A DNA stretch of 64,000 bases from Escherichia coli (lineage in GTDB: Bacteria; Pseudomonadota; Gammaproteobacteria; Enterobacterales; Enterobacteriaceae). The stretch lies in assembly GCA_902499925.1 (NCBI GenBank), contig GCA_902499925.1_4130.1; one strand, given 5' to 3'. Made by a program: the position numbers and the translations under genes. The notes below the pieces were generated by a model. That model ran no database searches. It had not been told where the DNA came from and worked only from the letters and a program-made list of their open reading frames with translations. Shown here in pieces: positions 1 to 64,000 of this stretch. Positions within the stretch are counted from its first letter, which is position 1, and each line of letters opens with the position of its first letter.

Positions 1-104
1 TAGCTACTTCCCGCATCAGTTCATCAAAGTTAGCCATTTTATTACTCCTTTTAGTGGGGGAGGATATCTCCCCCTATGCAAAACATTATACGCTTTATTC
101 AGTA

Positions 105-368
105 CTATGCAAGTACTTTTTTCATATAAAGATTATATTCTACACCGCCGTAACCTTCTACGATGATATGTTTTGCGTTATCACGTTTGCATATAGTAAA
201 GGCATCGTTGACGTGTTTTGCATTTTCCAGGGCAACATCGCCGATAGCGGCACATACTGAACTAATAACGATATTCCGCAAAGTACTGGTATCATTAGCG
301 GTCATAGTAGTTTGCAGTACTACGTTGTCGTATACGTGTGCATTGATAGTGATTTCGATAGTGTTCAT
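105..368 (-). CDS. hypothetical small early protein (87 aa)
   Basis: Track ORF 105..422 trimmed to Met19; AGGAGA RBS upstream of ATG; 5'-UTR hairpin (388-409) and promoter-like box upstream. Confidence 0.55.
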   Translation of the reverse strand: MNTIEITINAHVYDNVVLQTTMTANDTSTLRNIVISSVCAAIGDVALENAKHVNDAFTICKRDNAKHIIVEGYGGVEYNLYMKKVLA

Positions 369-455
369 GGTGTATCTCCTGGACTTGAGGGGAAACCATT
401 TCCCCCTCTCGATATAAAACATTATACGTTAATCTAACTACAATGCAAGTACTTT

Positions 456-647
456 TTAAATTTTATTTCCGATATAGTCCGGTCTATTCTTTTCGGTCAT
501 ACGCTTTGCTAATGATTGCATATGGCTTATTGCGTTTAATGTGTCTTCCTCCAGGGATGAATCAACATAATCAGGATCATTCTTCACCTTGCAATGATTA
601 TGATATCGTAGTACTGCCAGTACTTTTTTAACTTCTTCAACTGTCAT
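456..647 (-). CDS. hypothetical protein (63 aa)
   Basis: Minus ORF whose ATG overlaps the stop of 644..916 (ATGA), suggesting translational coupling. Confidence 0.5.
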   Translation of the reverse strand: MTVEEVKKVLAVLRYHNHCKVKNDPDYVDSSLEEDTLNAISHMQSLAKRMTEKNRPDYIGNKI

Positions 648-916
648 AATAAGTATTCCACTTCGTTAGCTTTCAGGTTAGTATCAATCATCAGTGGATT
701 TTTGTAGTTCACAAAACGAGTAGTTTTCTCGATAGCGAATCCCATATAATCCAGCTTACTAACAGTACATTCATTCTTAAAAACTTCTTTCGCTGCATCG
801 ATGGCTGATTGCATGGATAACCGCCCATCTAAGTTAATATTTCCAAATGATCCACCAGCAGAAGTAGGATTACCGTTCATATCTTTAATGATCATAGTAG
901 CGGAGTAGCTGGACAT
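644..916 (-). CDS. hypothetical protein (90 aa)
   Basis: Minus ORF; RBS AAAAGGAAAC before ATG; 5'-UTR hairpin 938-958 and promoter upstream. Confidence 0.6.
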   Translation of the reverse strand: MSSYSATMIIKDMNGNPTSAGGSFGNINLDGRLSMQSAIDAAKEVFKNECTVSKLDYMGFAIEKTTRFVNYKNPLMIDTNLKANEVEYLL

Positions 917-1000
917 AATTTTGTTTCCTTTTAGTATCGGGGAGAACTATTCTCCCCTTGATGTAAACTATTATACAGTACTAATATACTTTGTCAATAC

Positions 1001-1222
1001 TTAATTACGTTTAAAATGATATGTGCCTTTATCATCCTGTACGCCCCATACTGATTTACCATCAACACCAGTGAAACCGGATTGTAATTCAATATGGAAA
1101 CCATTATTATCAACTACAAAAACTTTTTTATTTTCATCCCGATAACATTGATATTCTGAATCAACATTAAAGGCCGCATCATTCAGAAGATTGGAAGCGT
1201 AAATGCAAGTCATTGTAGTCAT
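1001..1222 (-). CDS. hypothetical protein (73 aa)
   Basis: Track ORF trimmed to Met12; RBS TTAAGGAAT; hairpin 1243-1262; promoter TTGCAT-16-TATAAT at 1277-1304. Confidence 0.6.
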   Translation of the reverse strand: MTTMTCIYASNLLNDAAFNVDSEYQCYRDENKKVFVVDNNGFHIELQSGFTGVDGKSVWGVQDDKGTYHFKRN

Positions 1223-1397
1223 GATTTTATTCCTTAATATACCAGGGAGAACCATTTCCCCCTCTCGATATAAAACATTATACTTGATTCTAAGTACAAT
1301 GCAAGTACTTTTTTAAAAATAGTTTTCAGTACTGAATACTTATATAATATATACACTTCCGCACCCTATGGGTCAGTGAGTTATCTCTCAATGAATA

Positions 1398-1437
1398 TAT
1401 AATAGCAAAGGGACTGACCGGAGTCAATCCCTTTTTT
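1398..1437 (-). promoter_or_regulatory. terminator-promoter cassette (early-region variant)
   Basis: Minus strand reads GGGATTGAC-tccg-GTCAGTCCC then TTTGC-TATTAT. Confidence 0.5.
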
Positions 1438-1445
1438 AATCTTTT

Positions 1446-61983: not shown

Positions 61984-61986
61984 TTG

Positions 61987-62208
61987 TCATTCTCCATCAT
62001 ATTCAGTGAGTATTACACTATGTACGGTTTCAATATAGCGTTGTGTTTTTGGTGTGTTGTACTTAGTTACTTCATCAAACAATTTAAATAGTGCATGTGT
62101 TGGACTTAATGCACGAACAAATACATCAATCTTCTGTACTTCTTTCTTATAACCACGTACATTATTAAACTCAGATACATGCTCATACACAATGTAGTAA
62201 CGATTCAT
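61987..62208 (-). CDS. hypothetical protein (73 aa)
   Basis: Start overlaps stop of 62205..62720. Confidence 0.5.
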   Translation of the reverse strand: MNRYYIVYEHVSEFNNVRGYKKEVQKIDVFVRALSPTHALFKLFDEVTKYNTPKTQRYIETVHSVILTEYDGE

Positions 62209-62720
62209 ATATTAAGTAGTTCCATAAATTCATCGATCAAGGAAGTTCTAATGCACATAACAAATTCAAAATCAACATCGATAGTATCGAGTAGTTTGAA
62301 CAACTTTGGTACATTTGGGTCATTCAACTGGAAGTTATGAATCAAGCTCTGTTGAAACACACTTTCTTCAGTACTGTAATCAATAACAAAATATTCAGCT
62401 ACACCTGGTGGTGAATAAACATCATATAATATCTGACGTTTATTGTGTGTTTCTGAACCAGGACAATATATAAGTTCTATTTCATACGAACCTGCCGAGG
62501 ATCTATCATAAAACACAATTTCAGTACTGATTATTTCACTACCATCACTTCGTTCATGAAAACATACATCGGCATATCGTTTACCATTGGGCTTCAAAAT
62601 CTCATGAGTTGTTTTACCATAACATTTATCAGTTTCAATGTGAATTTTGTCTTGATATTCAGAACGTCTTACATCATTTCCACGATTAAACAATAAGATC
62701 AACAACTCATTAATATCCAT
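62205..62720 (-). CDS. hypothetical protein (171 aa)
   Basis: RBS GAGGCGAAATA. Confidence 0.6.
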   Translation of the reverse strand: MDINELLILLFNRGNDVRRSEYQDKIHIETDKCYGKTTHEILKPNGKRYADVCFHERSDGSEIISTEIVFYDRSSAGSYEIELIYCPGSETHNKRQILYDVYSPPGVAEYFVIDYSTEESVFQQSLIHNFQLNDPNVPKLFKLLDTIDVDFEFVMCIRTSLIDEFMELLNI

Positions 62721-62920
62721 TATTTCGCCTCGATAACCTTAAGGTTAACAAAATCACCTTTTACTTTCATGCATTTGAATTCAGTGCGAGTTTCATCCCC
62801 ACTATCGCGAGGCCAATGAGTAGCAGAGTAGCACTGGTCAGGCGTTTTATATACACCTTCACCAATAGTACGAGTGATCTCACCATTGGTGAGAACTACT
62901 GCGAGATATAAAGTAAGCAT
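62720..62920 (-). CDS. hypothetical protein (66 aa)
   Basis: RBS AGGAATTCCC. Confidence 0.5.
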   Translation of the reverse strand: MLTLYLAVVLTNGEITRTIGEGVYKTPDQCYSATHWPRDSGDETRTEFKCMKVKGDFVNLKVIEAK

Positions 62921-62928
62921 GGGAATTC

Positions 62929-63075
62929 CTATAAAAATTTATTAATAATAATAGCACCCAAACCAAGTACTGCAATAATTGAAGATACCCACATTACCGC
63001 ATTCACTGCACCAGTAAGTTCTTTATCAAACTCCCTGCACTTCTTGCGGTAATCTTCCCACTCTTTGTTATTCAC
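62929..63075 (-). CDS. small membrane-anchored protein (48 aa), GTG start
   Basis: Untracked ORF with AGGAG 7 nt before GTG; C-terminal hydrophobic helix. Confidence 0.3.
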   Translation of the reverse strand: MNNKEWEDYRKKCREFDKELTGAVNAVMWVSSIIAVLGLGAIIINKFL

Positions 63076-63287
63076 ACTGCCACTCCTAATAGGTCGGTAG
63101 CTTTCTTCAGTACTACGTCAATTGTTTCCAGTACTGCACCTTTGTGTTCAATTGATACAATATTATTATAAGTATCAAGGTCCAAGTACTCCATATATTC
63201 AGTTTTGAATACACGAACATCAGTACTAGTGATTTTAATATCACAACCTTTATCCCAAATAACCTGCATCATTTCATTGGTAGTCAT
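63072..63287 (-). CDS. hypothetical protein (71 aa)
   Basis: RBS AAGGTTGAATA. Confidence 0.55.
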   Translation of the reverse strand: MTTNEMMQVIWDKGCDIKITSTDVRVFKTEYMEYLDLDTYNNIVSIEHKGAVLETIDVVLKKATDLLGVAV

Positions 63288-63562
63288 TATTCAACCTTAT
63301 CATAAACAAGTTTGTGTGTGCTTAGTACTTTGTTGAGATGTCCAGGGCATTCATATACATACAATCTCTCCTGACGTTTTTCCCAACCACCACAGATACG
63401 GCCTGATTGTGTACATACCTCATACTCGTTAATAAAAGACTTACCTGTGAATGTACAATCCTGACGAACTAAGTCTTTTGCACTAAACCTGCCGTCATCA
63501 TTACATGCTGTAAGAAACATTGTACAGAATACAAAGACAACTGTCAATAGTTTTTTAATCAT
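63287..63562 (-). CDS. putative lipoprotein (91 aa)
   Basis: Signal peptide with lipobox-like LTAC (MIKKLLTVVFVFCTMFLTACNDD). Confidence 0.55.
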   Translation of the reverse strand: MIKKLLTVVFVFCTMFLTACNDDGRFSAKDLVRQDCTFTGKSFINEYEVCTQSGRICGGWEKRQERLYVYECPGHLNKVLSTHKLVYDKVE

Positions 63563-63927
63563 TGAACATCACCCCAACGGAAACCTTTCATATAATTCAA
63601 ATTCACCTCAACGAGTTCATGTGTTTTTGTACACCAAATGGAGAGAGTTTTTGTAACATCACCAGGTTCAGATTCATAATTCACACAATAACCTTCAATG
63701 CGTAGAGTTTTGTTAGTCCATGACTCCCACTCAATCCAAATTTCATTTGGATAATAAACCATATCTTCGTTGAACGTATGGAATTGGTCCATTGGTAAGT
63801 GACCTTCAACTTCAATTACTTCAGCACTTCGTGCCAGTTTTTCAAGCTTGTACTTTATTTCAGCAAGAAATTCTTCATTATTCATACGAGTTAATAAATC
63901 TGTTGCACGGGTTGTATCAAGGCTCAT
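63559..63927 (-). CDS. hypothetical protein (122 aa)
   Basis: RBS GGAGTACAACA. Confidence 0.6.
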   Translation of the reverse strand: MSLDTTRATDLLTRMNNEEFLAEIKYKLEKLARSAEVIEVEGHLPMDQFHTFNEDMVYYPNEIWIEWESWTNKTLRIEGYCVNYESEPGDVTKTLSIWCTKTHELVEVNLNYMKGFRWGDVQ

Positions 63928-64000
63928 TGTTGTACTCCATTAATCACTGAAGTATTGATTCGTGTTTTACCGCTGCTGTATCCAGTACTGGTATTTGCAT

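Follow-up and report, generated by a model that had tools for sequence, protein, structure and literature searches.

AGTACT is a selected, symmetric and lineage-specific genomic word in jumbo phages of the RaK2/121Q/GAP32 lineage

Phage genomes are the textbook case of palindrome avoidance, and AGTACT, the site recognised by ScaI and Eco255I, is a palindrome. Why should this hexamer be crowded into a stretch of phage DNA? The stretch in question, called the window below, is the whole 64,000 nucleotides analysed from contig GCA_902499925.1_4130.1 of the Escherichia coli assembly GCA_902499925.1. By megablast, it belongs to an E. coli jumbo myovirus of the 121Q/PBECO4 group, Asteriusvirus-like and RaK2-related, with phage fEgEco12 as the top match at about 97% identity (97.5% in a site-by-site comparison). 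An initial annotation, made by eye, had proposed that AGTACT occurs several times per kb, several-fold above what base composition alone would give and mainly in non-coding DNA, and that it has a functional role, perhaps as a regulator-binding site or a structural motif, in a phage resistant to restriction through DNA modification or otherwise. The analysis reported here established AGTACT as a selected, symmetric, lineage-specific genomic word, and the candidate readers of this word are weighed below.

The window contained 275 copies of AGTACT (4.3/kb), an excess stronger than the one claimed by eye. Markov models of order 0 and order 1 predicted 21.7 and 22.0 copies (12.7x and 12.5x), and models of order 2 and order 3 predicted 50.4 and 111 copies (5.5x and 2.5x). 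AGTACT ranked first among the 4096 hexamers at Markov orders 1-3. At order 4, the ratio dropped to 1.19, because the words AGTAC, GTACT and GTAC consist of the motif itself. In 100 dinucleotide-preserving shuffles, 21.5 ± 5.0 copies were obtained and never more than 38. The E. coli K-12 chromosome, sampled over one 50-kb stretch, exhibited 0.22 copies per kb versus 4.3/kb in the window. Single-linkage clustering on similar flanks, which brings together promoter cassettes and paralogues, left 217 independent clusters from 274 sites, and AGTACT was still about 10x enriched once the flank repeats had been collapsed. Inflation by repeats or paralogues was rejected on this count.

The coding split relied on approximate gene calls and, for the first ~25 kb of the window, also on the annotation transferred from fEgEco12. 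Coding DNA contained 180 sites in 54.4 kb (3.3/kb, 17.3 expected, about 10x), non-coding DNA 91 sites in 9.6 kb (9.5/kb, 3.8 expected, about 24x), and 4 sites span a boundary between the two. The proposal that the motif is mainly non-coding is then correct for density, which is about three times the coding one, and incorrect for number, two thirds of the sites nonetheless lying in genes.

The other palindromes of the window behaved as expected of a phage, in agreement with the contrast drawn by the initial annotation. Palindromic hexamers with four G/C were found 40 times versus 154 expected (0.26x), with 17 of the 24 absent, and those with six G/C were found 0 times versus 13 expected, all 8 being absent, so that 25 palindromic hexamers were wholly missing. 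Non-palindromic hexamers of matching composition were at 0.97-1.01x (0.97x for four G/C), and GCGC was absent versus 46 expected. Like the target of a type II restriction-modification system, AGTACT is strictly a palindrome of 6 bp, whose specificity is all-or-none and whose flanks have little effect. Such targets are, however, avoided in phage genomes, and this avoidance holds for the other palindromes here and for AGTACT itself in the related phage PA5oct. In the window, AGTACT is instead the most over-represented hexamer, at 12.7x, the opposite of the under-representation that marks restriction avoidance.

The excess was confined to the exact hexamer. The one-mismatch neighbours of AGTACT were at only 0.6-2.1x, the outer-position variants (NGTACT/AGTACN) at 2.0-2.1x and the inner-position variants at 0.6-1.9x. 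The flank preference was weak and symmetric: when coding sites were oriented by gene direction, 47% had C at -1 and 47% had G at +1, and in the pooled window flanks, C at -1 reached 47%, G at +1 46% and G at -1 7%. The flanks carried at most 0.5 bit of information. The form CAGTACTG was nevertheless found 62 times versus 1 expected, and non-coding copies were often widened to TTCAGTACTGAA, the fullest non-coding form. In three genera, the core was the same and the flank preferences differed. With weak one-mismatch neighbours and symmetric, low-information flanks, AGTACT is a sharp, two-fold symmetric 6-bp unit. This sharpness would be closer to a restriction/modification-type enzyme than to a typical degenerate operator.

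We then considered whether the motif is maintained at the DNA level. In the long open reading frames (ORFs) of the window and fEgEco12, 36-51% of the Ser-Thr, [KQE]-Tyr-[FLSYCW] and x-Val-Leu contexts were written as AGTACT, which is 3-6x above the codon-usage expectation in each of the three frames. Amino acid choice followed the same direction, the Ser-Thr dipeptide being at 1.4-1.55x versus 1.0-1.17x for Thr-Ser. In comparison with fEgEco12 at 97.5% identity, 94.1% of the sites were intact versus 88.5% of all hexamers, and the 15 site losses were balanced by 13 gains. In comparison with relatives of about 73% identity, 20-42% of the site positions were common versus about 20% for all hexamers, each of these genomes being still 3-7x enriched. 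Individual sites turn over and the density is kept. AGTACT is thus selected at the nucleotide level independently of the reading frame, and this recruitment of synonymous codons in three frames, together with conservation above background, supports the functional role that had been suggested.

The excess is not a local property of the window. In the whole fEgEco12 genome, 1096 copies were found versus 116 expected, with at least 11 in every 10-kb bin; the density was 2-3/kb in replication and structural genes and 6-7/kb in the terminal repeats, and over the ~370-kb genome it corresponds to about one site per 340 bp. In 200 kb of fEgEco12 core genes, the coefficient of variation (CV) of the spacing was 0.85-0.86 versus 0.995 ± 0.065 for random positions, the variance of 1-kb bins (1.5) was lower than the mean (2.2) and the largest gap was less than 2 kb. 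Most of the relatives were sampled over ~21-41 kb each. RaK2 (Klebsiella) contained 46 sites for 4.3 expected (10.6x), GAP32 (Cronobacter) 98 for 9.0 (10.9x) and XbC2, with Xanthomonas as its recorded host, 90 for 13.5 (6.7x). Metagenomic relatives with a capsid protein at least 85% identical were at 3-7x, relatives with a capsid protein 64-69% identical were at ~1x, and PA5oct (Pseudomonas) had 0 sites versus 14.3 expected in 41 kb of orthologous structural genes (65850-107025). AGT-ACT encodes 41 of the 66 Ser-Thr dipeptides in XbC2 and 0 of the 76 in PA5oct. From these counts and from the enrichment relative by relative, the trait is derived and lineage-specific, the opposite of what is seen in the near relative PA5oct.

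The non-coding sites were compared with 54 predicted intergenic sigma-70-like promoters, defined by a match to the consensus at 10 or more of 12 positions and in many cases perfect. AGTACT was present in 34 of the 54 and missing from 20, and it started in three main registers, at -19/-20 (17 sites), -39 (10 sites) and -29/-30 (5 sites). In the first class, TTGACA-N10-AGTACTg-TATAAT, the motif occupies -19 to -14 of the spacer, as at 970..997 on the minus strand; the 17 sites that begin at -19 or -20 belong to the AGTACTgTATAAT form, a promoter-spacer example that the initial annotation had quoted and that is real (n=12). Other promoters of this class are at 3822, 4093, 5383, 7534, 8116, 17989, 49253 and 60617. 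In the second class, AAAAAGTACTTGCAA-N16-TATAAT (16241..16273, minus strand), the motif abuts the -35 hexamer and overlaps its first T; this AGTACTTGCAA form accounts for the 10 sites from -39, and the sequence AGTACTTGCA[AT] was found 15 times. In the third class, TTGACAGTACT...tAGTACTAT (2333..2361, minus strand; others at 2609, 6421 and 43801), the last base of the -35 is shared with one motif, and the -10 hexamer TACTAT comes from a second one. The TTGACAGTACT form gives the 5 sites from -29 or -30, and a few copies form the -10 hexamer TACTAT. A protein bound at these promoter copies would overlap RNA polymerase. As a promoter element per se, AGTACT was rejected, with at least three registers, 20 of 54 promoters lacking it and only 41 of the 275 sites in promoters (85% outside). 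A location in leaders, also put forward earlier, was not borne out: CAGTACTGAA exists (n=42, both strands), yet only 2 sites lie at -7 to +34 of predicted promoters.

The terminator stems GCCAGTACT..AGTACTGGC were likewise found as described, as hairpins followed by a T-run. Terminator-like hairpins with the motif in both arms are located on the plus strand at 29402..29420 (GCCAGTACTcAGTACTGGC then TTTTCTTTTT), 30650..30675 (AATGCCAGTACTcaAGTACTGGCATT with a T-run) and 31876..31903 (AAATGCCAGTACTtgAGTACTGGCATTT with a T-run), and a similar one lies between converging genes at 41300..41326 (AATCCAGTACTATtATAGTACTGGATT; the plus strand has a T-run and the minus strand AAUUUUAAUU). Just these four hairpins, with eight sites and mostly in an array of RCC1-like genes, have the form of an intrinsic terminator, and the other sites are left unexplained thereby.

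What, then, might read the word? The explanation that we prefer, to which we give somewhat less than an even chance, is that AGTACT is read on duplex DNA by a candidate lineage-specific factor with strict symmetric recognition of the hexamer. Such a factor could be restriction/modification-like or a dimeric binding protein, and a phage-encoded or virion-borne one would be favoured. AGTACT would give the phage DNA a dense tag, the 50-kb host sample being about 15-20 times less dense. Selection would place copies wherever they are tolerated, in synonymous codon pairs, in the spacer or -35 flank of early sigma-70 promoters and in terminator stems. At promoters, -16, -28 or -38 would be covered by the same factor, so that early transcription could be switched as well, the most plausible way being occlusion of RNA polymerase. 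The tag might serve protection, the self-marking of phage DNA, genome organisation or the countering of silencing of AT-rich DNA.

Known systems share parts of this scheme. The genome-coating or promoter-occluding phage proteins SPO1 TF1 and phi29 p6 are alike in being phage proteins with many sites on their own genome, overlapping early promoters; they recognise modified bases or bendability and here, by contrast, a sharp hexamer is concerned. Chi (GCTGGTGG), KOPS and USS/DUS are also dense selected oligomers spread through genes by synonymous choice, each read by one dedicated machine and marking DNA as 'own'. They are asymmetric and orientation-dependent, whereas AGTACT is its own reverse complement, with symmetric flanks and no polarity.

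Several points weigh against a duplex reader of this kind. Pfam and PHROG scans of 30 window proteins gave no DNA-binding or sequence-specific candidate, and in the relatives no such Pfam hit was obtained in three annotated 'transcriptional regulators' or in six genes neighbouring methyltransferase genes. The palindrome also suits other readers. The fixed promoter registers may reflect no more than general pressure and inheritance: they fall where promoters can accommodate the sequence, and cassette duplication accounts for several classes, in line with two flank clusters that number 16 and 15 sites. The even spacing is modest, about 2.2 standard deviations (SD) per 100-kb block, and carries only modest weight because the window from 23.4 to 64 kb is not under-dispersed (CV 0.99). 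Finally, a strand-specific block that lies outside the window, described next, is not predicted by a purely symmetric duplex reader.

In Asteriusvirus, plus-strand genes form a block of about 8 kb whose sense strand is devoid of ACT, versus ~120-170 copies expected. It was found as a trinucleotide gap at 29,019-37,312 of fEgEco12 and at 11,521-19,032 of the 121Q stretch L174; the window is without any such block. The gap represents 170x the mean ACT spacing, and the next-largest gap of any trinucleotide is 23x its mean. AGT and ACA are normal or high in the block, and AGTACA replaces AGTACT, with 35 copies in fEgEco12 and 41 in 121Q (~5.5/kb). The block is conserved in 34 Asteriusvirus records; its genes evolve fast and are restricted to the genus, and no recognisable Pfam domain was found in 10 of its proteins. 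The idea that this AGTACT-free part of fEgEco12 is a recent import was rejected, as it is kept in the 34 records and proved to be free of ACT. Because sense-strand ACT is purged and AGTACA is kept, something reads ACT or ACU strand-specifically, and the block looks like an escape from an ACU-specific nuclease or another strand-specific ACT reader. The preferred explanation does not account for it, and the primase and RNase ideas discussed below stay alive for this reason. A second AGTACT-free block of fEgEco12 (~21,000-26,000) consists of very small, overlapping ORFs in an array; ACT does occur there, the depleted words being GTAC and CAGT, and the orthologous region of 121Q contains ~3 kb without AGTACT.

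Among the rival explanations, the one that survives best, although we consider it unlikely, is a template start site for a primase of the T4 gp61 type or another single-strand reader, with 5'-ACT-3' as the core, a cryptic 3' T, the hexamer as preferred site and pppGUACU as primer. A palindrome would serve both strands and both fork directions, and the lagging strand needs sites every few hundred bp. For T4 gp61, the recognised sequence is 5'-GTT/GCT-3', its 3' T being cryptic, and the primers are 5 nt long; five copied bases and one cryptic base add up to a hexamer, and ACT is one base from GCT, a fit that is formal only. The strictly hexameric unit with weak flanks and the genome-wide under-dispersed sites, with a largest gap below 2 kb that is on the scale of Okazaki fragments, are consistent with priming, as is a core kept across three genera as for a core replication enzyme. 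Among the neighbours, enrichment is most consistent for the three outer variants with GTACT preserved on one strand (~2x each), fEgEco12 g384 is annotated as a primase gene, and the ACT-free block retains TGTACT on a single strand, so that ACT would be read strand-specifically. On the other side, a primase site is not required to be a palindrome and only 64 of the 4096 hexamers are, and the intergenic density of 9/kb is far above any priming need. The loss of ACT from 8 kb of sense strand resembles nuclease escape more than priming avoidance, and the strand skew of the half-sites is without a replication-like pattern along the genome. PA5oct, moreover, has a homologous replication module and zero AGTACT.

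The closest analogue of AGTACT is HIP1 (GCGATCGC) of cyanobacteria, which is hyper-abundant and selected and was tied by Elhai to cognate methyltransferases (PMC4390886) and by Xu and colleagues to chromosome structure (PMC5861425). Each is a short palindrome whose genome-wide excess, in coding and non-coding DNA alike and whatever the frame, reaches one to two orders of magnitude; each is conserved above background and lineage-specific, with related genomes devoid of the motif, and has deviants biased to the outer positions. They differ in that AGTACT is an AT-rich viral hexamer enriched 10-13x, and HIP1 an octamer of a cellular chromosome, accompanied by alternate HIPs and enriched 15-300x. 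The C5 enzyme of the AGTACT lineage is reported to make m5CpG.

A HIP1-like origin, in which AGTACT would be the target of a phage methyltransferase and would be created or kept by methylation-linked biased mismatch repair or would act through its methylation state, nevertheless has a low probability in our judgement. Hyper-abundance in coding and non-coding DNA with conservation above background (PMC5861425) and the bias of deviants to the first and last positions, as reported by Elhai for HIP1 (PMC4390886), speak for it. So does the fact that the lineage encodes two orphan methyltransferases, a C5-cytosine enzyme (PF00145) and a Dam-type enzyme (PF05869), the former with orthologues of 63-74% identity in the AGTACT-rich RaK2 and GAP32. 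However, bisulfite analysis of RaK2 is reported to show m5CpG, and not AGTACT methylation (PMC3622015), and AGTACT has no CpG; no match to Vsr, the T:G mismatch-repair endonuclease, was seen in the gene that overlaps the methyltransferase gene at its 3' end; and the loci of distant methyltransferase homologues (35-54% identity) are AGTACT-poor, many having none. These three observations made the C5-methyltransferase a less likely candidate for the cognate enzyme. A drive by very-short-patch-type repair was rejected as well, since the deamination neighbours AGTATT/AATACT are not depleted (1.3x) and C-to-T is not dominant between close relatives (6 of 28 changes). The above-background conservation also favours selection over neutral replenishment.

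An RNA-level role, with AGUACU as a self-pairing unit of hairpins and terminator stems or as an endoribonuclease site timing mRNA decay, appears distinctly unlikely. The four terminator-like hairpins are made of two motif copies each, any two copies can pair, TTCAGTACTGAA giving a 12-bp duplex, and the 8-kb Asteriusvirus operon without sense-strand ACU has the classical sign of an escape from a sequence-specific RNase. An RNA signal, however, needs no DNA palindrome, and the best-positioned copies lie upstream of the predicted transcription starts (-39 to -14). Cleavage sites enriched in highly expressed structural genes would be costly, and the ACU-free block is found in one genus for an AGTACT enrichment in at least three. 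Gaps of 30 nt or less represent 2.8% versus 6.3% expected in fEgEco12 100-200 kb and are elsewhere roughly as expected; with close pairs not in excess, hairpin pairing was rejected as a general role of AGTACT.

The recruitment or titration of a host protein, for example the nucleoid-occlusion factor SlmA with its site GTGAGTACTCAC, is very improbable. The enriched phage genera mostly infect Enterobacterales, the SlmA consensus holds AGTACT (PMC3020112) and the palindromic architecture is common to both. The SlmA half-site needs G1, T2, a purine at position 3, A4 and G5 (PMC3020112). The phage flanks are T/C and C, the outer bases required by SlmA being absent, and neither a match to GTRAGYRCTYAC nor a copy of GAGTACTC occurs in the window; the SlmA site was rejected despite the shared core. 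XbC2, with its recorded Xanthomonas host, retains the enrichment, which also argues against a host protein. We know of no other E. coli regulator with an AGTACT site.

A by-product of base composition, codon usage, amino acid content or repeats, without function, is effectively refuted: 57 of the 274 sites fall into flank clusters (promoter cassettes, paralogous genes) and Ser and Thr are preferentially encoded by AGT and ACT, but no shuffle exceeded 38 sites, the excess persists after repeat collapse and over codon usage in every frame, sites are conserved above background, and PA5oct has zero sites at a similar G+C (0.33).

The sites can be placed in the layout of the window as follows. An early-type region at 1..16650 on the minus strand, with ~50 small genes each having a near-consensus sigma-70 promoter and a short hairpin, contains 101 AGTACT (56 coding, 45 non-coding). 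It lies by alignment inside the ~21-kb direct terminal repeat of fEgEco12, which covers the window from 1 to ~18.4 kb. The adjacent, largely non-coding stretch (16650..18700), the putative inner edge of the terminal repeat, contains 20 AGTACT, many of them as the full 12-mer TTCAGTACTGAA. This stretch may be a terminus, packaging or origin region, since the fEgEco12 record opens with its terminal repeat and its position 1 aligns at ~18.4 kb. It also holds an iteron-like tandem array at 17475-17573, with a unit of ~16 bp (TAGCCGTCTAGCCATC) in ~6 copies, besides which Rfam, tRNA and tandem-repeat scans of the window gave nothing relevant. An array of tiny paralogous genes (60-70 amino acids) follows at 18700..23390 on the minus strand, with 33 AGTACT in 4.1 kb of coding DNA. 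Megablast of the early part (1-25000) also matched Campylobacter, Klebsiella, Phapecoctavirus and Justusliebigvirus phage records, probably through short shared cassettes or small genes.

The plus strand from 23391 to 41295 is occupied by a tandem array of ~15 RCC1-like paralogues, with a short terminator after each. Its 39 coding sites (2.3/kb) are built mostly from Ser-Thr (AGT-ACT), x-Val-Leu and x-Tyr-x codon combinations. In the records of relatives, these paralogues are labelled 'chromosome condensation regulator' or 'DNA condensation protein', a label that reflects the RCC1 repeat only. The minus-strand block of mid-size genes at 41300..64000 contains 47 coding and 12 non-coding sites. 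Within it, the 2.85-kb segment 44058-46906, absent from fEgEco12 and standing in place of its HNH and DenV genes, holds a 516-amino-acid ORF with 1 AGTACT and no confident domain in Pfam/PHROG scans, and a homing-endonuclease gene with HNH_3 and NUMOD4 domains (53923-54465), inserted relative to fEgEco12, holds 0 AGTACT. These motif-poor segments are consistent with recent arrivals.

Two further elements were observed. The Chi octamer GCTGGTGG is present in 12 exact copies, on the minus strand at 852, 2259, 4608, 5856, 7317, 11309, 17785, 49753 and 60783 and on the plus strand at 11372, 17797 and 24824, and in 46 copies in fEgEco12 (both strands) versus ~3.8 expected. The copies are concentrated in the terminal repeat, mostly in a single orientation, which would face RecBCD entering from the nearby genome end. 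A promoter class without AGTACT carries its -35 hexamer TTGACT inside a terminator-like hairpin (AAAGGGATTGACTCCGGTCAGTCCCTTTgcTATTAT), forming a combined terminator-promoter cassette; it is found on the minus strand at 1407-1434, 4676-4703 and 8691-8718, with similar elements near 44.64, 46.62, 47.34, 51.70, 55.24 and 58.84 kb.

In the literature searched (AGTACT, CAGTACTG and ScaI in combination with phages), no description of AGTACT enrichment in these phages was found. One palindrome at ~13x excess bends the choice of codons, and even of amino acids, over 370 kb, and this implies a strong sequence-reading function in jumbo phages of E. coli, Klebsiella, Salmonella and Cronobacter, a widespread group of candidates for therapy. 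AGTACT provides a simple metagenome signature of the lineage and flags recently acquired DNA in these genomes, and an extreme sensitivity to ScaI is predicted unless the DNA is modified. It is possible, though we regard it as doubtful, that the lineage of 121Q/PBECO4, RaK2 and GAP32/CBB-like phages evolved a private genomic word read by a sequence-specific machine, which might be a primase specific for the hexamer, an enzyme that nicks or modifies DNA at the site, or a DNA-binding protein with a self-marking or protective role. In Asteriusvirus, this word would be tied to a second feature, the ACT-free operon, through a strand-specific ACT/ACU reader such as an ACU-cleaving nuclease. If this is true, the HIP1 puzzle of cyanobacteria would have its first counterpart in a virus. 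The reader, if found, could show a new form of discrimination between own and foreign DNA, of genome organisation or of replication priming, and could provide a tractable model for HIP1, a question that has stood for decades.

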